A program made the translations under genes and the position numbers. The notes under the pieces are model-generated. The model was not told where the DNA came from and ran no database searches. It saw only the letters and a program-made list of their open reading frames with translations. A DNA stretch of 64,000 nt, from NCBI GenBank assembly GCA_964585785.1, contig CAZPFL010000001.1:70097-134096 (forward strand), read 5' to 3'. Positions 6,369-61,058 of this stretch are shown piece by piece. The stretch is from an uncultured Rhodospirillaceae bacterium. GTDB taxonomy: Bacteria; Pseudomonadota; Alphaproteobacteria; UBA8366. Position 1 is the first letter of the stretch, and each line of letters begins with the position of its first letter.

Positions 6369-6622
6369 AGTTCGGGGTCACATCCTTCCCGCCGGCCGCG
6401 CTCTCCCGATTCGCGCCGGCTTACGCGTAATAGATGCGCAGCCTGGTACGATTTCGCAAGAAGAAGCGGCATATGGGGCAAAAGGCATGTGTGACAGGGC
6501 GAAATCATCCGGCTATTGTGCGGGCATCTCCGCTCGGCCGGATGCAGCGGCGGTCTAGGCCGCGCAGGCGCCGGGCAACCCCAACCGACGTTCCGGAACC
6601 ATTAAGAAGCAAGGAGGAAGCG

Positions 6623-7645
6623 ATGGCTGACATGCAGTTCGGCCTGATGACGCGGGCCCAGTTCCCGGCGGAAGACGACATGCAGGTCCGGTTCCGCGAG
6701 CTGATGGAGCAGGCGCGGCTCGCCGATAAGCTCGGCTATGCCAGCATTACCAATGGCATGCACTACAGCTCGGCCCCCTTCCAGGATTTCCAGCAGCTTC
6801 CTTTCCTGTCCCGCGTCATGGCCGAGGCGCCCAACCTGCGGCTCAACTTCGGCATTATCCTGCTCTCGCTGCACAAGCCGCTCGACATCGCCGAATCGCT
6901 CGCCACCGTCGACGTGATGAGCGGCGGCCGGGTGATCTTCGGCGCGGCATTAGGCTACCGCGAGGTCGAGTTCCTCGCCTTCGGCACCACGGCGAAGGAG
7001 AAGGTCAAGCGCTTCGAGGAAAACCTGATCGCGATCAAGCGGCTGTGGACCGAGGACGTGGTCAACATGAAGGGCTCGCATTTCGAGCTGAAGGACGCCT
7101 CGGCGGCAACCAAGCCCATCCAGAAGCCGCATCCGCCAATCTGGATCGGCGCCAACGCGGATCCGGCGATCAAGCGGGCGGCGCGCATGGGCGATTGCTG
7201 GTACGTCAATCCGCACAACCGCACCGATACGATCATCCGCCAGACCGAGGTCTACAAGCGCGCGCTGGACGAAGCGGGCAAGCCCTTCCCGAAGGAATTT
7301 CCGGGACGGCGCGAGGTTTTCGTCGCCAGCTCGCGGGAAGAGGCGGTCCGGCTTTGCAAGCCCTTCCTCGCGAAGAAGTACAAGGCCTATCACGAGTGGG
7401 GCCAGGACAAGGTCATGCCGGAAGGCGACAACGATCTCGGCCAGGATTTCGACGAGCTGGTGCGCGACCGCTTCTTTGTCGGCTCGCCCGACGAAGTCGC
7501 CCAGCAGATCCTCGACTTCAACAAGGCGACCGGCATCAACCATCTGATCATGAGCATGCAATGGCCCGGCATGCCGCAGAGCCTGGTGCTGGACACCATT
7601 ACCATGATGGCCGAGGAGGTTTTCCCGCGCGTCCGCAAGGGATAG
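6623..7645 (+). CDS. Luciferase-like (LLM class) flavin/F420-dependent oxidoreductase, paralog 1
   Basis: The ORF 6434..7645 was trimmed to the ATG at 6623, preceded by AAGGAGGAAGCG. The start MADMQFGLMTRAQFPAEDDM aligns with the N-termini of the other paralogs. Confidence 0.85.
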   Translation: MADMQFGLMTRAQFPAEDDMQVRFRELMEQARLADKLGYASITNGMHYSSAPFQDFQQLPFLSRVMAEAPNLRLNFGIILLSLHKPLDIAESLATVDVMSGGRVIFGAALGYREVEFLAFGTTAKEKVKRFEENLIAIKRLWTEDVVNMKGSHFELKDASAATKPIQKPHPPIWIGANADPAIKRAARMGDCWYVNPHNRTDTIIRQTEVYKRALDEAGKPFPKEFPGRREVFVASSREEAVRLCKPFLAKKYKAYHEWGQDKVMPEGDNDLGQDFDELVRDRFFVGSPDEVAQQILDFNKATGINHLIMSMQWPGMPQSLVLDTITMMAEEVFPRVRKG

Positions 7646-7681: not shown

Positions 7682-8707
7682 ATGAAGAAAATGCAGTTTG
7701 GCGTGATGCTGCGCGGCGTGTTTCCGCAGGGCGACGACATGCGGATCCGCTTCGAGGAGCTCATGGAGCAGGCCCGGCTGATGGAGAAGCTGGGCTACGA
7801 CTCGCTGACCAAAGGCTCGCACTTCTCCACCTATCCGATGCAGGAGATGGTGCAGATCCCGTTCCTCAGCCGGGTCATGGCCGAATGCCCGAGCCTTCGG
7901 CTCAACGCCGGCATCGTCCTGCTCGCGCTGCACAAGCCGCTCGAGGTCGCGGAGAACTTCGCGACGATGGATTTGATGTCGAACGGCAAAATGATCTTCG
8001 GCTGCGCGCTCGGCTACCGCGACGTCGAGTTCAAGGGCTTCGGAATCGAGCGCAAGGGCGCGGTCCGCCGGTTCGAGGAGAATCTGGAGGCGATCAAGCG
8101 GCTGTGGACCGGCGGCCCGGTGACCATGAAAGGCTCGCATTTCGAGCTGGACGAAGCGCGCATCAGCGTCCCGCTGGTGCAGCAGCCGCATCCGCCGATC
8201 TGGATGGGCGCCAATGCCGATAAGGCGGTCGAGCGCGCGGCTCGGCTCGGCGACTGCTGGTATCTCAACCCGCATCAGCGGCTCGACACCTTCCAGCGCC
8301 AGATCGAGATCTACAAGCGGACGCTCGACGCCTGCGGCAAACCCTTTCCCAAGGAGCTGCCGATGCGGCGCGAGGTGTTCTGCGCGCCGACGCACGAGGA
8401 GGCGGTGCGCATCGCCGGTCCCTTCCTCAAGAGCATGTACGAGGCCTACGAGGAATGGGGCCAGGACAAGGTCATGGCCGAAGGCGACAACGACATCAGC
8501 ATGCGCTACGAGGAGCTTGCCAAGGACCGTTTCATCGTCGGCTCGCCCGACGAGGTGGCCGAGGAGATGCTGCGCTATCATAAGCTGCTCGGCGTGAACC
8601 ACATCATCATGAGCGTGCAGGGCACCGGGCTGCCGCAGAGCCAGGTGCTGGAGACCTTCGAGCTGATGGCAAAGGAGGTCTTCCCGAAAGTGCAACAGGG
8701 CATGTGA
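7682..8707 (+). CDS. Luciferase-like (LLM class) oxidoreductase, paralog 2
   Basis: 341 aa, MKKMQFGVMLRGVFPQGDDM..., with the same conserved blocks as paralog 1. Confidence 0.85.
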   Translation: MKKMQFGVMLRGVFPQGDDMRIRFEELMEQARLMEKLGYDSLTKGSHFSTYPMQEMVQIPFLSRVMAECPSLRLNAGIVLLALHKPLEVAENFATMDLMSNGKMIFGCALGYRDVEFKGFGIERKGAVRRFEENLEAIKRLWTGGPVTMKGSHFELDEARISVPLVQQPHPPIWMGANADKAVERAARLGDCWYLNPHQRLDTFQRQIEIYKRTLDACGKPFPKELPMRREVFCAPTHEEAVRIAGPFLKSMYEAYEEWGQDKVMAEGDNDISMRYEELAKDRFIVGSPDEVAEEMLRYHKLLGVNHIIMSVQGTGLPQSQVLETFELMAKEVFPKVQQGM

Positions 8708-8724
8708 CGGAAGGAACGGGACAG

Positions 8725-9756
8725 ATGAGCGGCAAGAAGATGCGCTACGGGATCGGCATGCGGACGCAATACCCGCAAGGCGACGACATGGTGCAGCGGA
8801 CCGAGGACCAGATGGCGCAGGCCCGGCTCGCGGACAAACTGGGCTTCGACAGCCTGATGAAAAGCCAGCATCTCGCCGGGTATCCCTTGCAGGAATTCCA
8901 ACAGGTGCCGTTCCTGGCGCGCGCCATGTCGGAAGCGCCGAACCTGCGGCTCATCACCGGTATCGTTCTTCTGTCGTTGCACAAGCCGCTCGACCTCGCC
9001 GAGCAGCTTGCCACCATCGACGTGATGTCCGGCGGGCGGCTCATCTTCGGTGCCGGCCTCGGCTATCGCGAAGTGGAGTTCAAGGCTTTCGGCACGACCG
9101 CGAAAGACCGCGTGCCCCGCTTTGTCGAGAATCTCGAGGCGATCAAGCGGCTGTGGACCGAGGACGAGGTGACCATGAAGGGCTCGCATTTCGAGCTCGA
9201 CCATGTCCGCGTCTCGCTCAAGCCGGCGCAGAAGCCGACGCCGCCGATCTGGATCGGCGCCAACGCCGACGGCGCGATCAAGCGCGCCGCGAAGCTCGGC
9301 GACGCCTGGTTCATCAATCCGCACCAGAAGATGGAGACGATCGCCCGCCAGCTCGACATCTACCGCCGCGCGCTCGACGATCTCGGCAAGCCGTTTCCGA
9401 AAGAGCTGCCGCTGGCGCGCGAGATCTTCATCGCGTCCAGCAAGGACGCGGCGATGCAGCGCTGCGGGCGCTATCTCGCCGAGAAGTACAAGATCTATCA
9501 CGAGTGGGGCCAGGACACCGCGATGCCCGAGGGCGACAACGATTTGTCGCTGGCATTGGAGGAATTGCAGGAGGACCGATTCCTGCTCGGCCCTGCGGAC
9601 CAGATCGCCGAAAGCCTGATCCAGTACAACAAGCAGCTCGGCGTCAACCACATGGTGCTGCAATTCCATTGGGTCGGTATGCCGCAGGACCTCGTGCTGG
9701 AGCAGATGCAGATGTTCGCCGAAGAGGTCATGCCGAAGGTGGCGCAGGGCCTCTGA
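8725..9756 (+). CDS. Luciferase-like (LLM class) oxidoreductase, paralog 3
   Basis: The track ORF starts at a GTG at 8704. I trimmed it to the ATG at 8725 (MSGKKMRYGIGMRTQYPQGDDM), based on alignment with the paralogs and the upstream GGAAGGA. Confidence 0.8.
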   Translation: MSGKKMRYGIGMRTQYPQGDDMVQRTEDQMAQARLADKLGFDSLMKSQHLAGYPLQEFQQVPFLARAMSEAPNLRLITGIVLLSLHKPLDLAEQLATIDVMSGGRLIFGAGLGYREVEFKAFGTTAKDRVPRFVENLEAIKRLWTEDEVTMKGSHFELDHVRVSLKPAQKPTPPIWIGANADGAIKRAAKLGDAWFINPHQKMETIARQLDIYRRALDDLGKPFPKELPLAREIFIASSKDAAMQRCGRYLAEKYKIYHEWGQDTAMPEGDNDLSLALEELQEDRFLLGPADQIAESLIQYNKQLGVNHMVLQFHWVGMPQDLVLEQMQMFAEEVMPKVAQGL

Positions 9757-9793: not shown

Positions 9794-10810
9794 ATGAAGT
9801 ACGGATTTTTCATTCGCGGGCAGTATCGCCAAGGCGACGACATGGTGGCCCGGTTCAAGGAGCTGATGGAACAGGCGCGGCTCGCCGACAAGCTGGGTTT
9901 CTCGGACCTGCTCACCGGCATGCATTACGCGAGCTATCCGCTGAGCCAGTTCCAACTCATCCCCTTCCTGTCGCGCGTGATGGTCGAGGCGCCGAATATG
10001 CGCATCGTGACCGGCATCATCCTGCTGTCGCTGCACAAGCCGCTCGATATCGCCGAGCAGCTCGCGACGATCGACGTGATGTCGGAAGGCCGCCTGGTGT
10101 TCGGCTCGGGGCTCGGCTACCGCGATGTTGAGTTCAAGGGCTTCGGCACGAACCAGAAAGAGCGCGTGCCGCGGCTAATCGAGAATCTCGAGGCGATCAA
10201 GAGGCTGTGGACCGAAGACCACGTCAACATGAAGGGCTCGCATTTCGAGCTTGCGGATTGCACGCTTGCGCTCAAGCCGTTGCAGAAGCCGACGCCGCCG
10301 ATCTGGCTCGGCGCGAACGCCGATGGCGCGGTGCGGCGTGCGGCGAAGCTGGCCGACACCTGGTTCATCAACCCGCACCAGCGCATGGACACGATCGAGC
10401 GCCAGCTCAGCATCTACAAGCAGGCGCTGGCCGAGTTCGATAAGCCCTTCCCGAAGGAGTTGCCGCTGATGCGCGAGATCTTCGTCGCCAAATCGCGCGA
10501 CGAAGCGGTGCGTCTCGCCCGGCCCTATCTCGAGGAGAAGTACAAGGTCTATCACGAGTGGGGCCAGGACAAGGCGATGCCCAAGGGCGACGATGACCTG
10601 TCGCTCGACTTCGACGAGCTGACGCGTGACCGCTTCCTGTTCGGCTCGCCCGACGAGGTCGCCGAGCAGATTATCGGCTACAACAAACGGCTCGGCATCA
10701 CCCATCTGATGCTCGGCCTACATTGGGTCGGCATGCCGCAGAGCCAGGTCACCGACAGCATGCATCTGTTCGCCGAGGAGGTCATGCCCAAGGTGAAGCA
10801 GGCGCTCTGA
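9794..10810 (+). CDS. Luciferase-like (LLM class) oxidoreductase, paralog 4
   Basis: 338 aa, MKYGFFIRGQYRQGDDM..., with the same conserved blocks. Confidence 0.85.
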   Translation: MKYGFFIRGQYRQGDDMVARFKELMEQARLADKLGFSDLLTGMHYASYPLSQFQLIPFLSRVMVEAPNMRIVTGIILLSLHKPLDIAEQLATIDVMSEGRLVFGSGLGYRDVEFKGFGTNQKERVPRLIENLEAIKRLWTEDHVNMKGSHFELADCTLALKPLQKPTPPIWLGANADGAVRRAAKLADTWFINPHQRMDTIERQLSIYKQALAEFDKPFPKELPLMREIFVAKSRDEAVRLARPYLEEKYKVYHEWGQDKAMPKGDDDLSLDFDELTRDRFLFGSPDEVAEQIIGYNKRLGITHLMLGLHWVGMPQSQVTDSMHLFAEEVMPKVKQAL

Positions 10811-10829
10811 CCGCGGCGGATCTGCCGCA

Positions 10830-11900
10830 TCAGAAGCGCAGCGAGAGCGCGAGCGACCCGAAGTCGTCGAAGCCCTTCTGGCCGTGGAACTCCGGCGAGC
10901 GGAAGTCCTGGGTGTAGGAGACGCGGAAGCGCTGGAAGGTGACGGCGACGCCCGCCTGAAAGTCTGCGACGACGGGAATCTTATCGACGCTGCGGCTGTC
11001 GGCGAAGGTGTTGCCGTCGAGGAAGATGTTGCGGCCAACCACGCGTCCCTCGACCCCGCCGAAGAAGTACCAGCCGAAGTTATCCTCGGGCAGGAAGAAA
11101 TCGGATCCGGGCAGGTTGGGACGGATCTTGGGCGGTCCGTAATCCGCCGGTAGGTCCTTGCCGAACCGGCCCATGAACCCGGCGGCGCCATATGTCATGA
11201 CATTGCCGAGCGCGACGCCGGCATGGGGCGTGAAATCGAACGCCAGATGCTGGATCGGAATGATCTTGGAAACCGGCAGCTCGAACAGGCTGCGGCGGCT
11301 GCGCTCGTAATAAAGCTCGAGACCGGGCTCGGTCTTCAGCTGATAGTCCCAGCCGCGCGGTTTCTTGAAGCCGAAGATCCGGTGCCATTCGGTCTGTGTC
11401 TGCCGGGCGAAGGAATAGGGCCCGACGATGCCGAGCTCGACGTCGAGCTTGTCGAGCCAGGTGCCGCTGTCGGAAACGAGGCCCAGCCCGCCATAGAGCC
11501 AGCCTGCATAGGGCCGGTCCTTGGTCGATGGAACGGCCAAAGTGGTATCCGCGGGCGTGTAGATGTTCTGCCCGATCGAGAAGCTGAACCGCATGTTGTA
11601 GGTCGTCTTGAACAGCGGCAGGATCTCGCCGAGCCGGCGCATGGGCGCCGGGACCGCGCCCTCCGGCGACAGGTAGGCCGCGCGCATGCCGTTGGTGAAA
11701 TGCTTGTCGCTGCCGCCGAAGAAATCGTTGTCGAATTGCAGCGTCACGAAGCTGGACGGATCGAGCGGCTTTTTCGCCTTTTCCGGCGGGTCGTCTGCTT
11801 TAGCCGCAGCGATGCTTGCCAGCGTGATCGCTGCGGACAGCAGAAGCGACAGCAGGCTCTGGGATGTTCGGTGTGGCAAGGGCGCCCTGTTGAACGGCAT
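10830..11900 (-). CDS. LpxR-family (DUF2219) outer-membrane beta-barrel protein, lipid A 3-O-deacylase-like
   Basis: It has a signal peptide (LLSLLLSAAITLASIAAAKA/DD). The block FVTLQFDNDFFGGSDKHFTNG resembles the LpxR family. The C-terminus ...ALSLRF is a terminal-Phe barrel signature. Its start is 5 nt after the fbiC stop. Confidence 0.65.
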   Translation of the reverse strand: MPFNRAPLPHRTSQSLLSLLLSAAITLASIAAAKADDPPEKAKKPLDPSSFVTLQFDNDFFGGSDKHFTNGMRAAYLSPEGAVPAPMRRLGEILPLFKTTYNMRFSFSIGQNIYTPADTTLAVPSTKDRPYAGWLYGGLGLVSDSGTWLDKLDVELGIVGPYSFARQTQTEWHRIFGFKKPRGWDYQLKTEPGLELYYERSRRSLFELPVSKIIPIQHLAFDFTPHAGVALGNVMTYGAAGFMGRFGKDLPADYGPPKIRPNLPGSDFFLPEDNFGWYFFGGVEGRVVGRNIFLDGNTFADSRSVDKIPVVADFQAGVAVTFQRFRVSYTQDFRSPEFHGQKGFDDFGSLALSLRF

Positions 11901-11905
11901 GCAGT

Positions 11906-14356
11906 TTATTCGGCGGCGTCTAGTCCTGGTCTGACCAGTGGGGTCTGGGCATCATCCGGTCGCTCGTAGCGCACGGCGCGCGGCAGGACGACCGGCGCGA
12001 GCGCATCGGCGCCGAAGGACGCGGACACGCGCTCTTCCGGCACGTCCTGATAGAGCGTCGTTCGCTGTTTCGGCGTTCGGCCGGCGGCGCGGATCAAGGC
12101 TTCCATCGCCTCGGGCGGCATCTCCTCGCCATGGGATGCGCCGGCCGCGCGGGTGATGGTTTCGTTCATCAGCGTGCCGCCGAGGTCGTTCGCGCCGGCG
12201 TTGAGGCAAGCCCGCACGCCGTCGGGTCCCATCTTCACCCAGGAGGCCTGCACATTGCGGAAATGCGGATGCAGCGCCAGCCGCGCGACCGCGTGCATCA
12301 GCACGCCTTCGCGGAAGGTCGGACCGTGCCGCGCCTTGCCTTTGAGGAAGATCGGCGCCTCCATGGCGACGAAGGGCAGCGGCACGAACTCGGTGAAGCC
12401 GCCGGTCCGCATCTGCAGCGCGCGCAGGCGCAGCAGATGACGGGCCCAGTTCTCCGGCCCGTCGACATGGCCGAACATGATCGTCGCCGTGCTGCGCAGG
12501 CCAACGCGATGCGCCGTCTCCATGACCGAGAGCCACTGCTCGGTGTTGACCTTGTCCGGGCAGATGATCGCGCGGATCTCATCGTCCAGGATCTCCGCCG
12601 CCGTGCCGGGTAAGGTGCCGAGCCCGGCGTCGTACAATTCCTGAAGAAAGGTCTCGACGCTCTTGCCCAGCGTCTTCGCGCCCTGCCAGATCTCAAGCGG
12701 CGTGAAGGCGTGCAAGTGCATGTCAGGCAGCACGGATTTGAGTCGCCGGCAGATGTCGAGATAGGTCTCGCCCGTGTAGTCGGGATGGATGCCGCCCTGC
12801 AGGCAGAGCTCGGTCGCGCCGCGCTGCCACGCCTCGCGGCCGCGCCGCTCGATCTCGTCGAGGCCCAGGTCGTAAGGCTTGCCGCGCAAATTCTCGCTCA
12901 GCTTCCCTTTGGAGAAGGCGCAGAACTGGCAGCGGAAATAGCAGACGTTGGTGTAGTTGATGTTGCGATTGACGACATAGGTGACCGTGTCGCCGTTGAC
13001 CGCGCGGCGCAGCCGGTCGGCCGCGGCGCAGACCTCGGCGAATTCGCGGCCGCGCGCGTGGAAGAGCCGGACGATCTCGGCCTCGTCCAGCGTCTCGCCG
13101 GCCGACGCCTTGTCGAGGATCGCGCGGAAGCCGGCATCCACCGCGCCAACGCCGGGCGCGAGGTCGGGCGGCGCGCCGGGCGTGCCCGTCGACCAGGTCT
13201 CGGCGCGGGCGAAGCCGTCCGTGTCGATCGCGCGCACGACCGGCGTGCGGAAACGCGCGTCGATCCAATCTTCGGCCTTTCGGGCATAGGCGGGATAAAG
13301 GGCGAGGCGCTCGGTCAGCAGCTTGCCTGCCCCCGCCGTCTCGCGGGCCAGCGCGTCGAGATGCGGCCAGGGCGCTTCCGGGTTGACGTGGTCGGGGGTC
13401 ACCGGCGAGACCCCGCCCCAGTCGTTGATGCCCGCGCCGACCAGCTTCGGCAGGACGCCCGGGCTCAGATTCGGCGGCGCCTGGATATTCATCTCCGGCC
13501 CGAAGACGAGGCGCGCCACGGCGATGGTCCACAAGAGCTCGTCGAGGTCGGGCTCGGGCGCATCGGCCATGCGGGTGCCCGACTTGGCGCGGAAGTTCTG
13601 GATGATGATTTCCTGCACGTGTCCGTAACGCTCGTGCAGGTCGCGGAGTTCCAGCAAGGATTCGATTCTTTCGCGCCGTGTCTCCCCGATGCCGATCAGG
13701 ATGCCCGAGGTGAACGGCACTCGAAGCTCGCCGGCAAGCCGGATCGTCTCGAGCCGCGCCGCGGGATGCTTGTCCGGCGAGCCGTAATGCGGGCCGCCTT
13801 TCGCGCAGAGCCGGGGCGCCGCGCTCTCCAGCATCAGTCCCTGTGAAATCGAGACCGCGCGCAGCCGCACGATGTCGTCTTTCGTCAGGACCCCGGGATT
13901 GACATGCGGGAACAGACCCGTTTCTTCGAACACGGCGCGCGCCATCTCTTCGAGGTAGGAAATCGTCGTGTCATGGCCGAGGGCCGCCAGCTCCTGGCGC
14001 GCGATCTCGTAGCGCAGCTCCGGCTTGTCGCCGAGGGTGAACAGCGCTTCCTTGCAGCCCGCGGCGGCGCCGGCGCGCGCGACGGCCAGCACCTCGTCCC
14101 GCGTCATGTAGGCGCGCTGTCCTTTGCGGGGCGGGTGCGCGAAGGTGCAGTAATGGCAGACGTCGCGGCAGAGCTGGGTCAGCGGAATGAAGACCTTGCG
14201 GGAATAGCTGAACGCAACCGGATGTCCCTTGTCGCGCAATCCGGCGGCCGCGGCGGTCAGCGTGGCGGTGTCGTTGACGTCGGCGAGCGCCAGCGCGGCT
14301 GCGCGGTCGAGCCGGCCGCTCGTCGTCACGGTCTTCTCCGCGAAATCGCCGCTCAT
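11906..14356 (-). CDS. fbiC: FO synthase, bifunctional CofG/CofH (7,8-didemethyl-8-hydroxy-5-deazariboflavin synthase)
   Basis: About 816 aa with two radical-SAM Cys motifs (CRDVCHYCTF and CYFRCQFCAF). The ORF was trimmed to the ATG at 14356, which forms an ATGA overlap with the cofC stop. Confidence 0.9.
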   Translation of the reverse strand: MSGDFAEKTVTTSGRLDRAAALALADVNDTATLTAAAAGLRDKGHPVAFSYSRKVFIPLTQLCRDVCHYCTFAHPPRKGQRAYMTRDEVLAVARAGAAAGCKEALFTLGDKPELRYEIARQELAALGHDTTISYLEEMARAVFEETGLFPHVNPGVLTKDDIVRLRAVSISQGLMLESAAPRLCAKGGPHYGSPDKHPAARLETIRLAGELRVPFTSGILIGIGETRRERIESLLELRDLHERYGHVQEIIIQNFRAKSGTRMADAPEPDLDELLWTIAVARLVFGPEMNIQAPPNLSPGVLPKLVGAGINDWGGVSPVTPDHVNPEAPWPHLDALARETAGAGKLLTERLALYPAYARKAEDWIDARFRTPVVRAIDTDGFARAETWSTGTPGAPPDLAPGVGAVDAGFRAILDKASAGETLDEAEIVRLFHARGREFAEVCAAADRLRRAVNGDTVTYVVNRNINYTNVCYFRCQFCAFSKGKLSENLRGKPYDLGLDEIERRGREAWQRGATELCLQGGIHPDYTGETYLDICRRLKSVLPDMHLHAFTPLEIWQGAKTLGKSVETFLQELYDAGLGTLPGTAAEILDDEIRAIICPDKVNTEQWLSVMETAHRVGLRSTATIMFGHVDGPENWARHLLRLRALQMRTGGFTEFVPLPFVAMEAPIFLKGKARHGPTFREGVLMHAVARLALHPHFRNVQASWVKMGPDGVRACLNAGANDLGGTLMNETITRAAGASHGEEMPPEAMEALIRAAGRTPKQRTTLYQDVPEERVSASFGADALAPVVLPRAVRYERPDDAQTPLVRPGLDAAE

Positions 14357-15033
14357 GAACCGGCGCCTCCGGCCCGCCGCGGTTCGTCGCAAAGTCGCGC
14401 CGCGATGCCGCTCGACTCGAGATAGGCATGCGTGCGCGTCGCGCCGCCCCGCTCGATCAGCATGCGGAGATCGTCCGGCATATCGATGTCGAGCGCGATG
14501 CCCGGCAGGTCGATGATCCGGGGCTCGATCCCGCGCTCGCGGGCGGCGGCGAGGTGCGGCTGGAAGCTGTCGTTGCCGAAGCTGAAGGGGATGAGCCCCG
14601 GAGGCGAGAGGGCGATGCAGTTCGAGCCGCGGCGGTCATGCGCCGGCACGATGGTCATGCCCGGCGCTGCGTCATGGGCGGCGAGCACGGCATCGATTTC
14701 GGCCGCGGTAATCAGCGGCGTGTCGCCGGGCACCGTGACCATGCCTTTGGCGCCCTCTGCCTTGAGTTCCGCTGCCGCGCGCTCGATCGCGGCGGTCTGG
14801 CCCTGGTTTTCCGGCTCCTCGATCAGGCGCGCGCCATAGGCGCGGGCGACGGCGGCCGCTTCCGGGTCGCGCGTCACCACGACGATGCCTTCCAGCGCCT
14901 CGGCCCGCGACACCGCCGTCAGCACGTCCTCATACATGGTCCGGAACAGCAAACGGCGCTCCGCGGGACTCAGCGCGCCGGCGAGCCGCTGCTTCGCGTC
15001 CACGAGATCTTTTGCCGGCAGCACCGCCCACAT
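14353..15033 (-). CDS. cofC: 2-phospho-L-lactate (or PEP/3-PG) guanylyltransferase CofC/FbiD
   Basis: 226 aa. MWAVLPAKDLVDAKQRL...VPGDTPL...DIDMPDDL is the typical CofC layout, and the gene sits inside the F420 cluster. Confidence 0.85.
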   Translation of the reverse strand: MWAVLPAKDLVDAKQRLAGALSPAERRLLFRTMYEDVLTAVSRAEALEGIVVVTRDPEAAAVARAYGARLIEEPENQGQTAAIERAAAELKAEGAKGMVTVPGDTPLITAAEIDAVLAAHDAAPGMTIVPAHDRRGSNCIALSPPGLIPFSFGNDSFQPHLAAARERGIEPRIIDLPGIALDIDMPDDLRMLIERGGATRTHAYLESSGIAARLCDEPRRAGGAGS

Positions 15034-15110
15034 GCCAGGATTCCTTGTTTGGTGCGGTCAATTGGCGAGGCCCGGACTATAGCAGGGAGAGCCGGAGGGG
15101 GGCCAGTGGG

Positions 15111-16082
15111 CTAACGGGTGACCGAGCGCGCGACGGTTTGCGCGAAGTCGAGCACCTCGCGGGCGAGCCGGATCTTGTCGTCGAGGGTCCGCATGATCGT
15201 GCCTGTTATGTGGACGGCGATGCCGCGCTCCCGAATGGCGTCCGCGCTATCGGCGTCGCAGGCGTCGAGAATCAAGCCGTCGATCAGCCCGCGGTAATGC
15301 TCGGCGACCTCGACGGTGCCGCTGGCCAGCCCGAGCTCGGTCATCATCTTGGCGGTCGGCCCTTTGATCGCCCGGCCGCCGACGATCGGCGAGACCGCGA
15401 CGACAGGCGCGCCGCAGCCTCGCAGCGCCTGGCGGACGCCCGGTATCGCCAGGATCGGATCGATGCTGATGAAGGGGTTGGACGGGCAGATCACGATGGC
15501 GTCGAGCGCGTTCTTCAACGCCGCGGCAAAGGCCGGCGCCGGCTTCGCCGTGTCCGCGCCCTCGAAGCGAAAGCCGGTGACGTGCGGCGCGCACTGTTCG
15601 CGCACGAAATAATGCTGGAAGGGCAGCGGGCCGTCCGGGGTCTCGACGACGGTGCGGACCGACTGGTCGCTCATCGGTGCGACGCTCGGCCGCACGCCGA
15701 GACGCCGGCCGATGTCTTGGGTGACGGCGCTAAGCGTCTCGCCGGCCGCGACCCGCCGCGTGCGCTCCATATGGAGGGCGAGGTCACGGTCGCCGAGGCG
15801 GAACCAGGTCTCGCCGCCGAGCGCGGCAAGCGTCTCCATGAAATGCCAGCTTTCGTCGGCGCGGCCCCATCCGGTTTCCGGATTGGCGATCCCGGCCAGG
15901 GTGTAGGTGACGGTGTCGATGTCGGGGCAGACCAGCAGGCCGAGATGCTCGAAGTCGTCGCCGGTGTTGGCGACGACCAGAAGGTCTTCCGGCGGCAGGA
16001 CATGCGCCAGCCCGAGCGCGAGCTTGGCGCCGCCCACCCCGCCGGACAGCGCGAGGCAGCGTTGTCCTGCCCCCGTCGTCAT
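15111..16082 (-). CDS. cofD: 2-phospho-L-lactate transferase CofD/FbiA
   Basis: 323 aa, with LSGGVGGAKL, NTGDDFEHLGL.VCPDIDT and ICPSNPF.SI.PIL. Confidence 0.9.
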   Translation of the reverse strand: MTTGAGQRCLALSGGVGGAKLALGLAHVLPPEDLLVVANTGDDFEHLGLLVCPDIDTVTYTLAGIANPETGWGRADESWHFMETLAALGGETWFRLGDRDLALHMERTRRVAAGETLSAVTQDIGRRLGVRPSVAPMSDQSVRTVVETPDGPLPFQHYFVREQCAPHVTGFRFEGADTAKPAPAFAAALKNALDAIVICPSNPFISIDPILAIPGVRQALRGCGAPVVAVSPIVGGRAIKGPTAKMMTELGLASGTVEVAEHYRGLIDGLILDACDADSADAIRERGIAVHITGTIMRTLDDKIRLAREVLDFAQTVARSVTR

Positions 16083-16852
16083 CGGAACAGGTCCTCGTCC
16101 TCGCTCCGGATCAGGTCGGCCGCCTGCTGGTCGGCGGCTTCCGGCGCCATGCCGCGGATCAGCGCCACCGGCGTGCCTTCCGCCGCCTCGCCCTGCACCA
16201 GGGCCGCGGCGGCGGCAAGCTCGTCGGCAAGGCCGACCTGGGAGACGCGCAGCGTCCGGCCGAACAGGTCGGTCGCACCGCGCAGGTCGAGCAGCGTGGT
16301 CAGGCCGGCCGCGCCCAGCGCCGTGCCGATCGTGCCGTGCCGCCAGGCGCGGCCCAGGCTGTCGTTGATGATCACGGTCGGCGCCACCCCCGTCACCCCC
16401 CGTAGCCGCCGCCGGAGATCGCGGCAGCTGCGGTCCGGGTCCTCCGGCAGCAACAGTACGCGCTCGCCGGCCGCCGGGTCGGGCTCGACATTCGAAGCGT
16501 CGATACCCGCATTGGCGAGCACGTAGCCGTGGCGGTGCTGGACGATCAGCAGGTTGGGGCGGTGCCGCACGACGCGGACGGATTCACGCAGAATCAGCTC
16601 GACGAGGCGCGCGTCCTTGCCCGTCTTCTCGGCGAGATCCTTCGCTTCCGCGCTCGGCTCGACGGCAGCCAGCGCCGCGTAACGGCCTTCGGCCTTGGAG
16701 ACAATCTTCTGCGCTACGACCAGCGTGTCGCCGGCGCGGAGAGCGATGTTGGTGCGGTCGAGTCCGGCCACGATGAGCGCGGCGAGATCGTCGCCCGGCT
16801 GCACCAGCGGCATGCCGGGGAGGGCGGTAATCTCCAGACGGCGGGGTGTCAC
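16079..16852 (-). CDS. cofE: F420-0:gamma-glutamyl ligase CofE (stand-alone, about 257 aa)
   Basis: The ORF 16079..17056 was trimmed to the GTG at 16852 (VTPRRLEITALPGMPLVQPGDDL...VVAQKIVSKAEGR...ANAGIDASN), giving a GTGA overlap with the fno stop. The Arg-rich N-terminal extension in the track overlaps fno and is not credible. Confidence 0.85.
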   Translation of the reverse strand: MTPRRLEITALPGMPLVQPGDDLAALIVAGLDRTNIALRAGDTLVVAQKIVSKAEGRYAALAAVEPSAEAKDLAEKTGKDARLVELILRESVRVVRHRPNLLIVQHRHGYVLANAGIDASNVEPDPAAGERVLLLPEDPDRSCRDLRRRLRGVTGVAPTVIINDSLGRAWRHGTIGTALGAAGLTTLLDLRGATDLFGRTLRVSQVGLADELAAAAALVQGEAAEGTPVALIRGMAPEAADQQAADLIRSEDEDLFR

Positions 16853-17520
16853 GCGTTGGGCTCGCCGGTAATGCGGATGCCGGCGTGGTGCACGCCGCCG
16901 TTGCGGTTGATGAAGATGAGCACCGAGGTCAGCGCCTCGGCGGCGGCCGAGTTGTCGATCGAGCCGGCGTGCCAGGCCTTGAGGCCCGCCGCTTGCGCCA
17001 GCGCGACGACGGCGTCGCGCGCCTCGCGCTTGTTGCCGCAGACCAGGACGTCGCACTCGATCTTGCTCTTCTCGTCCTGCAGCAGATCGGCGGCTACATT
17101 CTGGAAGGCGGAGACGACCTGCACGCCCTCGCCGAGGAAGTCCTGCGCTTCCTTTGCGGCCGAGCCTGCGTCCGGAAGCTGAACCCGGGCGACCCGGGGC
17201 GGGACGAGCGGGACGGTCGCGTCGACCAGGATCTTGCCCTGCGCACCCTCGCGCACCGCCTCCAGCATCGGCTTGTGGTTGGCGTAGGGCACGGTCAAGA
17301 CGACAATGTCCGCGGCGGCCGCGGCGGCGCCGTTCTCCAGCCCGGAAATCGCGGCGCCGGGGACCGCGACGGCCATCTCCGCCGCCTTCTTGGCCGCGCT
17401 CTCCGCCGCGCGCGAGCCGATGATGACGGGGTAACCCGCCCGCGCCCAGCGCTGCGCGAAGCCGGAGCCGAGGGCTCCGGTGCCGCCGATGACGGCGATT
17501 GTCGGTTTCTTGTCGGCCAT
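16849..17520 (-). CDS. npdG: NADPH-dependent F420 reductase (Fno/NpdG)
   Basis: 223 aa. It has the Rossmann motif IAVIGGTGALGSGFA, the overall Fno/NpdG layout, and the SD AAGGAAGGA upstream. Confidence 0.8.
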   Translation of the reverse strand: MADKKPTIAVIGGTGALGSGFAQRWARAGYPVIIGSRAAESAAKKAAEMAVAVPGAAISGLENGAAAAAADIVVLTVPYANHKPMLEAVREGAQGKILVDATVPLVPPRVARVQLPDAGSAAKEAQDFLGEGVQVVSAFQNVAADLLQDEKSKIECDVLVCGNKREARDAVVALAQAAGLKAWHAGSIDNSAAAEALTSVLIFINRNGGVHHAGIRITGEPNA

Positions 17521-17569
17521 GAATCGTCCTTCCTTGCCCGGTGCTTGACTGGTTGCGAAAGCGGCTCGA

Positions 17570-18358
17570 TCAGTGCTTGTCGAGGAACGCCCTGAGCGCG
17601 GCGTTGAAGTCGGCCGCCTGCTCGATGTTGGAGAGATGCGCGGCGTTCTTGAGCACGACCAGCTTGGAGCCGACGATCTCCCGGTGGATGATTTCCGAGT
17701 GCTCGACCGTCGTGCTCGGGTCGTCCGCGCCGACGATGATCAGCGTCGGCGTCTTGATGCCCGCCAACAGGTGGGTCTGGTCCATCGCCTGGATGGCCTT
17801 GCAGCAGCCGACGAAACCGTCAACCGGGGTGGACGCGATCATCGCGCCGACCCGCTCGACCTCGCGCTTCGCCTTGGCGCGGTAGGGCGCGGTGAACCAG
17901 CGCTCGAGCGTCGCGGGCGCGAGTGAGGCCATGCCGTCGCGGCGCGCCGCCTCGGCCCGGGCGTCGAAGGCCGACGGGTCCGGCATCCGGCTGGCGGTGT
18001 CACACAGGACGAGGCTGCGCAGCTCTTGAGGATATTTTGCGCCGAATAGCTGGCCCGTCATGCCGCCCATCGACAGGCCGCAGAAATGCACCTTGCCGAG
18101 CCCGAGCGCCGCGATCAGCGCCCGGGCGTCCTCCACGAGCATGTCGAAGCTGTAGGGCGGCTCGGTCGCCTGGCTGCCGCCATGGCCGCGCTGGTCGTAG
18201 CGCAGAACGCGGTATTTGCCGGCAAGGGCGGGGATCTGCGCGTCCCACATGGTGTAGTTGGACGCGAGGCTGTTGCTGAGCATGACCACCGGGGCGGATT
18301 CCGGTCCGTCCAAGCGGTAGGCGATCTCCACGCCATTGGCCTTGATCGTGTCTGCCAT
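17570..18358 (-). CDS. Alpha/beta hydrolase, 3-oxoadipate enol-lactonase-like
   Basis: Only the C-terminal 262 aa of the 642-aa track ORF are credible, starting at the ATG at 18358 (MADTIKANGVEIAYRLDG...). It has the nucleophile elbow GLSMGG and a C-terminal AAHLSN. Confidence 0.8.
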   Translation of the reverse strand: MADTIKANGVEIAYRLDGPESAPVVMLSNSLASNYTMWDAQIPALAGKYRVLRYDQRGHGGSQATEPPYSFDMLVEDARALIAALGLGKVHFCGLSMGGMTGQLFGAKYPQELRSLVLCDTASRMPDPSAFDARAEAARRDGMASLAPATLERWFTAPYRAKAKREVERVGAMIASTPVDGFVGCCKAIQAMDQTHLLAGIKTPTLIIVGADDPSTTVEHSEIIHREIVGSKLVVLKNAAHLSNIEQAADFNAALRAFLDKH

Positions 18359-18520
18359 CGGCTTTCTCCCTGTTGTCCCGGACCAGCGGGCTGATTGCTC
18401 TGTCGCGCCGCCGAAGCGGCATCGCGATGCAATTCGGTAGCGTATTAAGAGAATCTTGGCACGGGCTGGCAAGAGGAGGATAACAGGCGCGGCCAGGCTT
18501 TGCAGGGGGGCGAAGAGGTA

Positions 18521-19588
18521 ATGCTTCGAATTCGGGCGAAAATGGTCTTGGCGGCCCTGGTGGGCGTGTTGTGCCTCGGGGGCTTGGGTGGGCCGGGCTT
18601 GGCCCGTGCGAGCGACAAGGCGAGCGTTCTTGAGCTCTTGTTCGACGCGCCGCACCGCATGGCGGACAGCCTGATTTCGATGCCGCCGATTGATTCCGTG
18701 GAGAAGCCGTTCACCGCGGCACTCGACGGTGTCGTTTCGGGCGACCTCGCCGCGGCTCGCAGCAACGCCGCCGCGGCCGGTTACGACCTTATCGCGCGGA
18801 CGGAAGAAGGCCGACGCTACGTCATTCTGATGGAACACGGCCGGGCCGGCATCGGGCCGACCATCGCGATTGCTCGAAACCCCCAGCGGGACGTGGTGAT
18901 CGAGGCACCGCATCCGATCATCGACCGGTATTCCGACCGCGAGGCGGCGGTGCTGTTCCTGAAGCTCGGGGCACGCGCGCTCGTGCTCTCGGGCGCCAAT
19001 CGTTGCGCCGCCAAGGCGGAGTCCGCCTGCAGCGGCAAGACGCGCGTCTGCGGCGGCGGCAGCGAGCCCTACCGGACGTCCGATCCGGCGCATAACCCGG
19101 CGACTCTGTTCCACGCCGCGCATCTTTATTTTTCCCGGCGCTGGCCGAAATCGATCGTCTTCCAGCCGCATGGACTCAACAACAACGGCAGCACCGTGTG
19201 GTTCGTGATTTCCGACGGCACCAAGGAGAAGCGCCCGGGCGACCCGATGCTGACCGGCCGCATCCGCGACGGCCTGCGCCAGGCGCTGGGTCCGGACCGG
19301 GCCGTGAGCTGCCAGGACCCGGCCGACCGCAACATCAAGACACGCTGGCTGTGCGCCACGAACACGGTGCAGGGCCGTGACCTGAACGGCAGTTCCGATG
19401 CGTGTCATAGCAGCGCGCAGCACGCGTCGGGCCGCTTTCTCCATATCGAGCAGACCTATGAGGAAGTGCGGCGCGGCTACGGGCTCGATTGGCAGCACTT
19501 GGCGGCCTATCCGGGCAGCGATGCGATCCTGACGACGCTTGCCAAGACACTGCCCTGCATCCGGCCGGATTGCACCGCCGTCCCATAG
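18521..19588 (+). CDS. Secreted cysteine-rich hypothetical protein (possible metallo-hydrolase fold)
   Basis: It has a signal peptide (MLRIRAKMVLAALVGVLCLGG...ARA/SD), 9 further Cys beyond the signal-peptide Cys, and His-containing blocks IEAPHPIID and VFQPHGL. GC3 is high. The start is ambiguous (TTG 18500, ATG 18521 or ATG 18542). Confidence 0.55.
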   Translation: MLRIRAKMVLAALVGVLCLGGLGGPGLARASDKASVLELLFDAPHRMADSLISMPPIDSVEKPFTAALDGVVSGDLAAARSNAAAAGYDLIARTEEGRRYVILMEHGRAGIGPTIAIARNPQRDVVIEAPHPIIDRYSDREAAVLFLKLGARALVLSGANRCAAKAESACSGKTRVCGGGSEPYRTSDPAHNPATLFHAAHLYFSRRWPKSIVFQPHGLNNNGSTVWFVISDGTKEKRPGDPMLTGRIRDGLRQALGPDRAVSCQDPADRNIKTRWLCATNTVQGRDLNGSSDACHSSAQHASGRFLHIEQTYEEVRRGYGLDWQHLAAYPGSDAILTTLAKTLPCIRPDCTAVP

Positions 19589-20789: not shown

Positions 20790-21960
20790 CCAATACACGG
20801 ATGCGCGGGTCAAGCCCGTGCATGAGGAATTTAATTTTAATTCGATGAGGAATCGGAAATAGTGCGACGCCATCGCCTTGCATCCAGGAACGCTTTTGTC
20901 CGTTGTAAGAACGCGAGGCTGTAACGGACGTCAAGGGAAAATTTGAACCAAAAAATATGCCGTGAAGAGGGTTCTCGCAGAACAATGTCGCTTAATTGTC
21001 TTATTACCGGCACAGGCCGAGACGGTACAACGACGGCTAGCGTGTTGGCGTGCAATTTGGCTATCGCTAACAACGACAAAGCTGATGCCGGTCACGAAAC
21101 AAACATCAGCGCGTTATATAATTCATGGTTCCGTTATCATGAAAGTGGCGATTCCTCTGAAATTGAGTCGGTGCTTCGAAGCTGGACCCATCGAGTAGAA
21201 AGTTCGAGCGGACATGCCTTCTGGTTGCCCATCGTGGCGAAGGTTTTTGGTCCCGATATTGGGTTGATTCATCTAAAACGAGATCGCGCCGCCTGTATCG
21301 AGTCGCTTTGCCTCAATCGTACGACGTGGCCAGAATTCCATGGAAATTATATAGATTGCACTGACCTCCCAATACGGACCTGGCTTCCGACAGCATTTCA
21401 TTTTGGTGAAATGACCAAAGCGGAATGGGAGGCCGCTCCTCTCCGTGAAAGGATCGGCTGGTACTACGACAAGACGCACGAGTTAATTAATCGGCATAAG
21501 GGGCTATTCTCCCGGTACCTGGAGGTCAAGACCGAAGACTTAAATAAGCAAACGGTTATTTCAAGCATTCGTGATTTCATAAATCCGAGATGGGAAAACG
21601 ATGTATTCCCCGTCCATAATAATTTTACAGGGCTTCACAAGATCTATGATTTGACCTTTGAAGAAAGTCGGCGGGCTGAGTTGCTATTTAACAGATTTAA
21701 CGTCGTTCGAGCCGTCAAGCATCCTGACGGACTCCTTTATGCAGCAAGTTATTTTATGAACAAAGTCTTGGAGTCATACCCCAGCAACAAGCTCCAAGTG
21801 GCGGACTTTCTCGCAAATTATGTGAAGCGGATCGCCGAGATTGCAAAAAAAGAATCCAAGGACTCGTGACGAGTGTTCGGAATTGAAGGGCTGGTGGACA
21901 AATCGAAGTAGCATGGGCGCCGCAACCTAAAAACAGTGAAACTTGCAATTCGAACGGAAC
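20790..21960. other. Low-GC islet (compositional anomaly) carrying one orphan gene
   Basis: Hand counts of two 60-nt lines inside gave 35% and 48% G+C, against roughly 60-70% in the flanks. No tRNA, integrase or flanking direct repeats were seen. Confidence 0.7.
20985..21869 (+). CDS. Sulfotransferase-fold-like P-loop protein (orphan, low-GC)
   Basis: The start is MSLNCLITGTGRDGTTTAS, which resembles the 5'-PSB loop G..RSGTT. GLIHLKRDRAACIESL resembles the 3'-PB motif .HL.R(D/R)....S. The start was trimmed from the TTG at 20943 to the ATG at 20985. Confidence 0.5.
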   Translation: MSLNCLITGTGRDGTTTASVLACNLAIANNDKADAGHETNISALYNSWFRYHESGDSSEIESVLRSWTHRVESSSGHAFWLPIVAKVFGPDIGLIHLKRDRAACIESLCLNRTTWPEFHGNYIDCTDLPIRTWLPTAFHFGEMTKAEWEAAPLRERIGWYYDKTHELINRHKGLFSRYLEVKTEDLNKQTVISSIRDFINPRWENDVFPVHNNFTGLHKIYDLTFEESRRAELLFNRFNVVRAVKHPDGLLYAASYFMNKVLESYPSNKLQVADFLANYVKRIAEIAKKESKDS

Positions 21961-22109
21961 CCGCCGGCGATGGACTCGTCGATACTGGCCGCTTAGCCTC
22001 CATCGACACGCCGTAACGTATGCGTCTTCGATCGCCTGAGATCGGGTCTGTCATGGAATGTGCATTCCGTCGTTCGCCGGTTTGCCCCGCGAGTCCATGA
22101 GGCATCGGC

Positions 22110-34673: not shown

Positions 34674-36116
34674 ATGCCGGAGCAGATGCTGAAATTCGTC
34701 GACACGCCGCAGCGGATGCCCGAAAAGCGGGATTCGCAGCAGCGGCGCACCGACTTCCTGGAAATCTACAAGCGGTTCGACCCGACCCGAGCCGCCGAAC
34801 AGGCTGCGCGCTGCTCGCAATGCGGCATTCCCTTCTGCCAGCAGCATTGCCCGCTGCACAACAACATCCCCGACTGGCTGATGCTCACCGCCGAAGGCCG
34901 CCTGGAAGAGGCCTACGAGATGTCGTCGTCGACCAACACCTTTCCCGAGGTCTGCGGCCGCATCTGCCCGCAGGACCGTCTGTGCGAAGGGAACTGCGTC
35001 ATCGAGCAGGCGGGCCACGGCACGGTCACGATCGGGACGGTGGAGAGCTACATCACCGAGACGGCCTGGGAGAAGGGCTGGATCAAGCCGGTCGTCCCGG
35101 TTGCCGAGCGCAAGCAGTCGGTCGGCATCATCGGCGCCGGTCCGGCCGGGCTGGCGGCTGCCGAGCGGCTGCGCCGGCTCGGCTATCGGGTGGTGGTCTA
35201 CGACCGCTACGATCGCGTCGGCGGCCTGCTGATTTACGGCATTCCGAATTTCAAGCTGGACAAGGCGATCGTCGACCGTCGGGCCAAATGGCTGATCGAG
35301 AGCGGCGTGACGTTCGAGCTCAATTTCGAGGTCGGCCGCGACGCGACCCTCGCCGAGCTCAAGCAACGGCATGACGCGGTGCTGATCGCCACCGGCGTGT
35401 ACAAGGCGCGCGATATCGCGGCGCCCGGTGTCGGGCTCGGCAACATCGTGCAGGCGATGGATTTTCTGACGGTGAGCAACCGCGAAGGGCTCGGCGACCA
35501 AGTGCCGGCCTTCGATGACGGCTCGCTCAACGCGAAGGGAAAGAATGTCGTCGTCATCGGCGGCGGCGACACTGCGATGGATTGCGTGCGCACCGCCGTT
35601 CGCCAGGGCGCGCTGTCGGTCAAGTGCCTGTATCGGCGCGACCGCGAGAACATGCCGGGATCGGCGCGCGAGGTGAAGCATGCCGAGGAAGAGGGCGTCG
35701 AATTCGTCTGGCTCTCCGCGCCGGAAGCGTTCCTTGGCGACGGTGTGGTGAGCGGCGTGCGGGCCCAGCTCATGCGGCTCGGCCTGCCGGACGCCAGCGG
35801 CCGCCAGACGCCGCAGCCGATCGAGGGCTCGTCCGCCGTGCATGACGCGGAGCTGGTGATAAAGGCGCTCGGCTTCGATCCGGAGGATCTGCCCGTCCTG
35901 TTCGCGGAGCCCGCGCTTCCCGTCACGCGCTGGGGCACGGTGCGGGTCGACTGGCGGTCGATGATGACCGAGATGGACGGCGTCTTCGCGGCCGGCGACA
36001 TCGTGCGCGGCGCCTCGCTCGTGGTGTGGGCGATCCGCGACGGCCGCGACGCCGCGGCGGCGATTCACGATTTCATCGAAAAGCGGCAGAGCGAAACGCT
36101 CGCGCTCGCCTCCTAG
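34674..36116 (+). CDS. gltD: Glutamate synthase (NADPH) small subunit
   Basis: The ORF was trimmed to the ATG at 34674 (MPEQMLKFVDTPQRMP...). It has the Fe-S Cys motifs CSQCGIPFCQQHCP and ICPQDRLCEGNC, plus GAGPAGL. Confidence 0.9.
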   Translation: MPEQMLKFVDTPQRMPEKRDSQQRRTDFLEIYKRFDPTRAAEQAARCSQCGIPFCQQHCPLHNNIPDWLMLTAEGRLEEAYEMSSSTNTFPEVCGRICPQDRLCEGNCVIEQAGHGTVTIGTVESYITETAWEKGWIKPVVPVAERKQSVGIIGAGPAGLAAAERLRRLGYRVVVYDRYDRVGGLLIYGIPNFKLDKAIVDRRAKWLIESGVTFELNFEVGRDATLAELKQRHDAVLIATGVYKARDIAAPGVGLGNIVQAMDFLTVSNREGLGDQVPAFDDGSLNAKGKNVVVIGGGDTAMDCVRTAVRQGALSVKCLYRRDRENMPGSAREVKHAEEEGVEFVWLSAPEAFLGDGVVSGVRAQLMRLGLPDASGRQTPQPIEGSSAVHDAELVIKALGFDPEDLPVLFAEPALPVTRWGTVRVDWRSMMTEMDGVFAAGDIVRGASLVVWAIRDGRDAAAAIHDFIEKRQSETLALAS

Positions 36117-36135
36117 GAATTTGGAGGGTCATGGA

Positions 36136-57566: not shown

Positions 57567-58406
57567 TTAGTGCGGTTTGTCGCCCGCCAGGATGATGCGA
57601 TAGAGCAGGCGGAGCTCTTGGAAATCGTAGTCGGCGGTGGCTTTGTGGATGCAGCACCGGTTGTCCCAGATCACCATGTCGCCGGGACGCCAGTGATGCG
57701 TATAGGTGAATTCCGGCCTAGTCGAATGCGTGACCAGGCGATCGATGAGGTCGGCGGAGCTTTCGGGCGTCATGCCGCGGAACCGGCGCACCCGCAACGG
57801 ATTGAGATAGATTGCCCGGCGGCCGTTCTCGGGATGGGTGCGGATCAGCGGATGCACGACGCCGTCTGATACATCATCGTCGCCGGCGGCAATGCGCTCG
57901 GCGAGGCTCGGTGGCATGCGGCTTTCCGTGTAGGCGTGCACGGCTTCGAGGTCGTCGACCTCGGCGCGCAGCGTTTCGGGCAGCGCGTCGTAGGCGGCAC
58001 CCATATGCGCCCAGCGCGTGTCGCCGCCCTTGCTCGGCAGCGCGACCGCGAACAGGACTGTCGCCTTCGGCGGCTCCGGCTGGAAGGAATGGTCGGTGTG
58101 CCAGCTCACGCCGCGCACGTTGATCTTGCCGTCCTTGGTCTTTTCCTGGTTCGAGATGGTCGCCACGTCCGGGCAGTCCGGCAGGTTGAATCGCTCCAGA
58201 TGCTGGCGGACGGGTTCGCCGAACAGCCGGGCGGCGGCGAGGAATTGCGGCGCGTCGAGCGTCTGGTCGCGGATAACCAGCAGGGCGCGATCGACGAAGG
58301 CGCGCCGCAGCCGGTCCGCGGTCTCGGCGTCGAGGTGGCGGGAAAGGTCGGCGCCGGTAATCTCCGCGCCGAGCGGGTCGGAGAGATTTCGGATCGAGAC
58401 CGCCAT
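57567..58406 (-). CDS. TauD/TfdA-family Fe(II)/2-oxoglutarate dioxygenase, copy 1
   Basis: 279 aa. It has WHTDHSF (H.D facial triad), a distal HHW region, and the C-terminal WDNRCCIHKA. Confidence 0.85.
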   Translation of the reverse strand: MAVSIRNLSDPLGAEITGADLSRHLDAETADRLRRAFVDRALLVIRDQTLDAPQFLAAARLFGEPVRQHLERFNLPDCPDVATISNQEKTKDGKINVRGVSWHTDHSFQPEPPKATVLFAVALPSKGGDTRWAHMGAAYDALPETLRAEVDDLEAVHAYTESRMPPSLAERIAAGDDDVSDGVVHPLIRTHPENGRRAIYLNPLRVRRFRGMTPESSADLIDRLVTHSTRPEFTYTHHWRPGDMVIWDNRCCIHKATADYDFQELRLLYRIILAGDKPH

Positions 58407-58431
58407 TCCCTTTCCCCTCGGCGGCCGTCGG

Positions 58432-60024: not shown

Positions 60025-60052
60025 AGTCTTGCGTTCTCCAGATTCGTTCGAG

Positions 60053-60898: not shown

Positions 60899-61058
60899 CG
60901 GGACTGCCTCCTGCGAATGGCCGAGGGAAAGAAGCGTCGCCAAGGACGGAAAACGGGCTTGCCATCGACGGCAAGCGGGCGAACAGGGCCGTTTCCTCGT
61001 TCTTGAGCGTTTATCGCGAGACTATAAAGCGGCGGCGGCCCCGGGCGCAAACCGCCGC

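Follow-up and report, generated by a model that had tools for sequence, protein, structure and literature searches.

A 64,000-nucleotide stretch of DNA from an uncultured Rhodospirillaceae bacterium (contig CAZPFL010000001.1; hereafter the window, whose numbering is used for all coordinates unless another source is named) carries, at positions 11906-17520 of its minus strand, five uninterrupted reading frames for the biosynthesis and reduction of coenzyme F420, in the order fno-cofE-cofD-cofC-fbiC and without frameshifts or internal stops. This cluster very probably represents the standard F420 genes of Proteobacteria, residing on the chromosome and maintained by vertical descent, and its product is predicted to be the classical, lactyl-linked F420-n. 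The identities, order, strand and coordinates proposed for the five genes by an initial annotation, made from the letters alone, were borne out by NCBIfam cut-offs, Pfam and the open frames. Specifically, each protein scores above the curated cut-off of its own NCBIfam model, the measure (in bits) by which family membership was judged, and the Pfam results agree.

The fno (npdG) gene (16849-17520) encodes an NADPH-dependent F420 reductase of 223 residues that reaches 204.4 bits on TIGR01915 (cut-off 149.8), finds its best solved relative in the T. fusca Fno (5N2I, E 1.9e-39) and carries the dinucleotide-binding motif GGTGALG (residue 12) together with GSR. It is followed by cofE (16079-16852; 257 residues), which encodes a single-domain F420-0:gamma-glutamyl ligase (TIGR01916, 274.7 bits, cut-off 180.65) with the motifs NAGIDASN (residue 114), DSLGRAWRHG and DELA. 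The GTG at the head of this frame can with good reason be taken as the start codon, a choice backed by the alignments with the A. fulgidus CofE structure 2PHN (E 7.8e-50) and with the TIGR01916 profile, which begin at residues 5 and 7, respectively, and by the metagenome gene calls, two of three independent ones, on contigs with an identical Fno, giving a product of 257 residues and the third one of 244. The phospho-C3-acid transferase gene cofD (fbiA; 15111-16082; 323 residues) scores 299.1 bits on TIGR01819 (cut-off 257.45), its product aligns about equally well with M. mazei CofD (3C3D, E 3.6e-51) and mycobacterial FbiA (6UVX, E 6.3e-51), and its motifs include GGVGGAK (residue 14), NTGDD (residue 39), PSNP (residue 200) and PDIDT.

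The guanylyltransferase that activates the C3 acid is encoded by cofC (fbiD; 14353-15033; 226 residues), with 145.6 bits on TIGR03552 (cut-off 105) and the Mycetohabitans CofC 7P97 as its closest solved structure (E 7.6e-29); alignment with 6BWG and 7P97 shows that the Mg2+ and substrate ligands K, D, S, D and D (equivalent to Mtb K17, D116, S166, D188 and D190) are conserved. Lastly, fbiC (11906-14356) encodes a fused CofG+CofH FO synthase of 816 residues, a length also found in a metagenome gene call. FbiC scores 1162.3 bits on NF006687 (cut-off 1018), both of its domain models pass (CofG, TIGR03550, 492.5 bits against 213.35; CofH, TIGR03551, 555.8 bits against 374.1), the solved relative of its CofH half is MqnE (6XI9), and it displays two CxxxCxxC radical S-adenosylmethionine (SAM) motifs, one in each domain: CRDVCHYC (residue 63) and CYFRCQFC (residue 472). 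Frameshifts and damaged catalytic motifs, which the initial annotation had named as signs against a working cluster, are absent: every catalytic or ligand motif checked is intact in all five proteins.

Read as a pathway, these genes would allow the CofG and CofH radical-SAM domains of FbiC to form the deazaflavin FO from tyrosine and 5-amino-6-ribitylamino-uracil, CofC to activate a C3 phospho-acid with GTP, CofD to transfer the activated C3 acid to FO, CofE to add the gamma-glutamyl tail and Fno to keep the resulting cofactor reduced at the expense of NADPH. The arrangement is the standard proteobacterial F420 cluster and is not unusual. A scan for FbiC with one genome per species yielded 80 related loci, 31 of which show the order fno-cofE-cofD-cofC-fbiC; these come from Alpha-, Beta- and Gammaproteobacteria, among them Kaistia granuli, Mesorhizobium marinum, Cupriavidus numazuensis, Halioglobus and many metagenome-assembled genomes (MAGs). 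The Chloroflexota and Acidobacteriota loci hold fbiC alone. Tight or overlapping junctions are likewise common among the related loci, in a survey that takes the start codon nearest to a 4-nucleotide overlap and so over-counts overlaps, showing common tight spacing only. Earlier reports record the F420 genes in Alphaproteobacteria, where the cofactor has also been demonstrated biochemically (Ney et al., 2017, via PMC8498797; PMC8764529; bioRxiv 10.1101/670455), and describe horizontal spread of the genes among bacteria (PMC8498797; PMC8764529; bioRxiv 10.1101/670455).

The form of the cofactor can be predicted from CofC. A Ser or Thr at position 162 of Mrhiz-CofC marks the use of 3-phosphoglycerate (3-PG), leading to 3PG-F420, and the S162G substitution removes that preference (Hasan et al., PMC8764529). 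The equivalent site is Gly in the window, within FSFGNDSF, and also in the closest genome, L001 (see below); across 49 related loci it is Gly in 45, Asp in four and Ser or Thr in none. With Gly at this diagnostic position, the cluster is predicted to make classical lactyl-linked F420-n and not 3PG-F420. Production of the glyceryl-linked variant, which is known from Mycetohabitans (Betaproteobacteria), would be in agreement with 7P97, a 3-PG-activating enzyme, being a far closer match to the window CofC than M. tuberculosis FbiD (E 1.9e-11), and with two traits that the cluster shares with Mycetohabitans, the single domain of its CofE and the lack of a linked dehydro-F420 reductase. However, not only the Gly but also the residues at the sites of Mrhiz M91, C95 and H145 (Gln, Ile and Arg) speak against it, and the CofCs of the alphaproteobacteria Paracoccus denitrificans and Oligotropha carboxidovorans refuse 3-PG (PMC8764529). 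The glyceryl-linked variant was rejected on the diagnostic residue and is most unlikely.

Two routes to the lactyl linker have been described: one starts from 2-phospholactate (2-PL), the kinase for which is unidentified in any organism, and the other from phosphoenolpyruvate (PEP), after which dehydro-F420-0 is reduced by FbiB's C-terminal domain or by a stand-alone FbiE (PMC8498797). The pathway had been called complete at the outset, and by the four-enzyme convention it is; strictly it is not, as the step of linker supply or reduction is not encoded at the locus. Several results weigh against a self-sufficient cluster in this respect. CofE lacks the FbiB reductase domain, NF009810 covering only profile positions 10-243 of 449 with 226.9 bits against a cut-off of 304; no nitroreductase-family gene was found among the approximately 50 window open reading frames (ORFs) scanned with Pfam; and the Pfam matches of 134 ORFs flanking 39 related operons include no nitroreductase family with at least two members, single-ORF families being reported only in part. 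Additionally, no recurrent nitroreductase cluster emerged among all ORFs of the 80 loci, and the Pyridox_ox_2/PNPOx fold, which is that of the F420H2-dependent FDOR reductases, is matched by only 3 of the 134 flanking ORFs, all of them outside the window. The linker function may well be encoded elsewhere in the genome. One form of this, which differs from the preferred explanation only in its C3 route and is thus a sub-variant of it, is the mycobacterial-style path from PEP through dehydro-F420-0 to reduction by an unlinked, nitroreductase-type FbiE. CofCs of this kind turn over PEP at 3.5-30% in vitro, in assays that cannot tell the in vivo substrate (PMC8764529), stand-alone FbiE homologues occur in several predicted producers (PMC8498797), and the want of a known 2-PL kinase is itself in its favor; the lack of a nitroreductase gene among the window ORFs scanned, of a recurrent one beside the 39 operons and of the FbiB domain in CofE makes the PEP path less likely than not. 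A use by the clade of an undescribed linker-forming or linker-reducing enzyme, either one that forms 2-PL or a dehydro-F420 reductase of a new fold, possibly a conserved neighbor such as the luciferase-like paralogs or the pcaD-like hydrolase described below, was considered because CofC shows no 3-PG switch, CofE no FbiB domain and the surroundings of the operon no recurrent FbiE. The evidence does not point specifically to such an enzyme, since the linker gene may lie elsewhere in the genome, and we grant the idea little probability.

The chromosomal setting argues for vertical maintenance of the cluster. The closest genome is an Alphaproteobacteria MAG (WHUA01000001; L001), which is syntenic with the window over the entire neighborhood and, together with an FbiC identity of 91%, confirms the initial assignment of this DNA to an alphaproteobacterium. 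Identities to L001 are 87% for Fno, 86% for CofE, 77% for CofD and 84% for CofC, giving a range of 77-91% for the operon that is comparable to the 76-89% of the flanking proteins (M20 peptidase, 88%; unknown secreted protein, 76%; pcaD-like hydrolase, 85%; LpxR, 76%; luciferase-like paralogs, 89%), and no frame is disrupted. As the two ranges are alike, the operon has changed at the pace of its flanks since the two genomes last shared an ancestor. A recently acquired genomic island would find some encouragement in base composition, the guanine-plus-cytosine (GC) content of the operon being 0.698 against 0.652 for the rest, the highest among all 5.6-kb windows. The description of this content as native-like, given initially, thus fails for total GC, but it holds for GC at third codon positions (GC3), which is 0.86-0.92 in the operon and 0.83-0.91 in its neighbors, so that codon positions 1 and 2 account for the excess, which hence lies in amino-acid composition, not at synonymous sites. 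The neighbor-joining tree of FbiC, in which the window and L001 stand beside a Nannocystaceae MAG and a Chloroflexota MAG, outside the main alphaproteobacterial groups, also leans toward an acquisition and fits the published picture of patchy transfer; with no bootstrap, no outgroup and short deep nodes, this tree hints at mixing across phyla and deserves little weight. On the other side, no integrase, insertion sequence (IS) element, tRNA or other mobility gene flanks the operon (the only tRNA of the window, a tRNA-Leu, lies at 32160), the window is core chromosome, with lptC-lptA-lptB-rpoN-hpf-ptsN at 26-31 kb and thrS-infC-rplT-pheS-pheT at 46-54 kb, and L001 holds the operon at the same place between equally diverged flanks. 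The recent-island reading was rejected on GC3, synteny and the absent flanking mobility genes, and it is scarcely probable. A cluster that is silent or decaying, with no cofactor made, has to be weighed against the preferred account as well. Counting against that account are the trace amounts of F420 found in the two Alphaproteobacteria that have been tested (PMC8498797), a sigma-70 consensus scan of 10500-19000 in which no promoter was found, and the fact that the organism is known solely from metagenome contigs. However, the five frames are intact with each checked motif conserved, metagenome contigs from four separate samples show an identical Fno, the same gene order and matching product lengths save for the one 244-residue cofE product, and the identities of 77-91% to L001 with undisrupted frames indicate purifying selection. 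A silent or decaying cluster is therefore given very little probability, and the cluster is best regarded as a maintained one from which F420 would be produced.

The manner in which the genes are joined suggests that they are not expressed as a single, uniformly coupled unit. The three start/stop overlaps of 4 nucleotides listed by the initial annotation are read in the sequence at the positions it gave: GTGA at fno/cofE (16852-16849), ATGA at cofE/cofD (16082-16079) and ATGA at cofC/fbiC (14356-14353). Translational coupling, claimed for the whole operon, accordingly applies to three of the four junctions and not to cofD/cofC, where no overlap exists and a 77-nucleotide spacer (15034-15110, minus strand) with a probable internal promoter intervenes. 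Within this spacer lie TGCTATAGT (15076-15084) and an AAGGAA ribosome-binding site. TGCTATAGT, which was spotted post hoc, is the sole match to the extended -10 pattern TGNTATANT on either strand of the window (0.45 expected for its full length). A further indication comes from L001, in which approximately 0.9 kb with two antisense ORFs is inserted directly after the cofD stop, while the whole spacer, TGCTATAGT included, remains joined to cofC. Because this insert separates cofD from cofC, cofC-fbiC-lpxR needs its own promoter in L001, and the same is likely in the window. Thus, the spacer probably holds an internal promoter and a cofC leader, and expression probably takes place as two linked sub-units, (pcaD-like)-fno-cofE-cofD and, behind the spacer, cofC-fbiC-lpxR. 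The insert itself (L001:8314-9207), which splits the operon into cofD and cofC sides, has a lower GC content and its antisense ORFs, of 192 and 94 residues, have no Pfam match; it resembles a small cassette of two genes, and may possibly be toxin-antitoxin-like.

Both ends of the unit are also less sharply drawn than initially proposed: the extent of five genes stands as a gene set, although fno may not lead it and fbiC may not end it, and the transcription unit is probably longer than 11906-17520. On the downstream side, lpxR (10830-11900, minus strand; Pfam LpxR, E 2.4e-105), of the lipid A 3'-O-deacylase family, has an ATG that begins 5 nucleotides past the fbiC TAA (gap 11901-11905); in L001, the GTG of lpxR and the TGA of fbiC are merged in a GTGA overlap (L001:12406-12409). 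Three terminator-like sites were found within 10500-19000, below the chance expectation, and none of them lies between fbiC and lpxR. Judging from this spacing, lpxR is probably the last gene of the transcript. It is an outer-membrane lipid A deacylase gene, and no functional tie between lipid A remodelling and F420 is evident. On the upstream side, a pcaD-like alpha/beta hydrolase gene (17570-18358, minus strand; TIGR02427, 269.1 bits, cut-off 255.85) stops 49 nucleotides before fno, in the same orientation. Its place is unchanged in L001 and the metagenome contigs, and the spacer to fno is equal in length in L001 and approximately 85% conserved. The nearest divergent intergenic region upstream of the operon is 18359-18499, and the pcaD-like gene is possibly the first of the unit, in which case fno would not lead it. 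Beyond that region, the divergent ORF 18500-19588 (plus strand; approximately 350-360 residues) has a signal-peptide-like N-terminus and no Pfam or NCBIfam match, and is conserved both in the metagenome contigs and, at 76% identity, in L001. An Rfam scan of the window for a riboswitch or RNA element near the operon returned only a cobalamin riboswitch at 408-621 and the one tRNA.

Convergent with the operon, four tandem luciferase-like (LLM) oxidoreductase paralogs lie on the plus strand at 6434-7645 (with a likely start at about 6623), 7682-8707, 8704-9756 and 9794-10810 (stop-to-stop coordinates), and all four match Pfam Bac_luciferase. They are plausible F420-dependent enzymes, and the best candidate users of the cofactor, in a judgement that is about evenly balanced. 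In its favor, TIGR03619 (F420-dependent LLM, Rv2161c family) is the NCBIfam model on which each of the four scores best, and no other neighbor of the operon recurs as widely as the LLM family, which is present in 44 of 81 sources (the window and its 80 related loci); in several Alphaproteobacteria, an LLM gene even lies inside the operon, in the place of fno. Against it, the TIGR03619 scores (156.4, 133.0, 132.6 and 119.9 bits) all fall under the cut-off of 166.9, and the closest structure, 7BIP, bears the generic name 'luciferase-like monooxygenase'. No Fgd was found among the four: the Fgd model, with its cut-off of 420 bits, gives them approximately 30-45 bits.

Elsewhere in the window, genes for a sulfite/nitrite reductase, a tetrapyrrole methylase and a two-component system occupy 1-6 kb, and a glutamate synthase-like region extends over 34.5-40.7 kb, with small-subunit-type domains and a 4.7-kb ORF (35968-40677) that fell outside the scan. 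The cobalamin riboswitch is on the minus strand (RF00174, 120 bits), and the gene that it controls lies at or beyond the left window edge. A low-GC patch at 20800-22100 (approximately 0.55, against a window mean of 0.656) includes a 308-residue ORF (20943-21869) without a family match and is maybe a small foreign insertion. A sulfur-related cluster at 57567-61892 (minus strand) encodes two TauD/TfdA-family dioxygenases, a four-domain rhodanese protein and a TauE/SafE sulfite exporter, and adjoins a major facilitator superfamily transporter. Among the related loci, five gammaproteobacterial ones of Pseudomonadales type have an extra gene directly upstream of fno (L027:6157-6792, L038:5157-5834, L042:6056-6688, L048:6084-6692 and L057:5901-6710), which together form a five-member ORF cluster; five flanking ORFs, presumably these same genes, match PF04013, a putative SAM-dependent RNA methyltransferase family. 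One ORF in the flanks of the related operons, not in the window, matches the DarT ADP-ribosyltransferase family.

The initial observation holds and its main reading was sound; the five-gene set is already a well-described kind, and the refinements made here are unsurprising to a specialist. It brings one more uncultured lineage of Alphaproteobacteria into the known list of Gram-negatives that have F420 genes, with five genes of the classical, non-3PG type packed into a compact cluster, next to which the LLM paralogs would be sensible enzymes to consider first as F420-dependent. It also touches on two questions that extend over the clade, the supply or reduction of the linker and the use of F420 in Gram-negatives, both of which are listed as unanswered in reviews (PMC8498797).

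Among known systems, alphaproteobacterial operons such as those of O. carboxidovorans and P. denitrificans (Ney et al., 2017, via PMC8498797; PMC8764529) share with the window a fused FbiC, a single-domain CofE and a 2-PL/PEP-type CofC, along with reduction by Fno and neighboring luciferase-like genes, whereas the window lineage differs in having lpxR right after fbiC, the pcaD-like gene directly upstream, four tandem LLMs and no Fgd. The 3PG-F420 cluster of Mycetohabitans (Paraburkholderia) rhizoxinica (bioRxiv 10.1101/670455; PMC8764529; 7P97) has fbiC, cofC, cofD and a single-domain cofE in common with the window, but its CofC carries the diagnostic Ser162 where that of the window has Gly, and it lacks both fno and candidate F420-dependent enzymes (bioRxiv 10.1101/670455), which the window has. 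The mycobacterial genes (fbiC, fbiD and fbiA-fbiB) likewise include a fused FbiC, the window CofD resembles FbiA (6UVX) and archaeal CofD to the same degree, and the closest solved relative of the window Fno is actinobacterial; unlike in mycobacteria, where the genes are dispersed, those of the window form one cluster, and they lack the C-terminal nitroreductase domain of FbiB. Finally, with respect to the archaeal CofC, CofD, CofE, CofG and CofH, the window CofE is of the stand-alone archaeal type, its only solved matches being the A. fulgidus CofE entries, whereas CofG and CofH are fused in one protein and the genes are gathered in a single operon.

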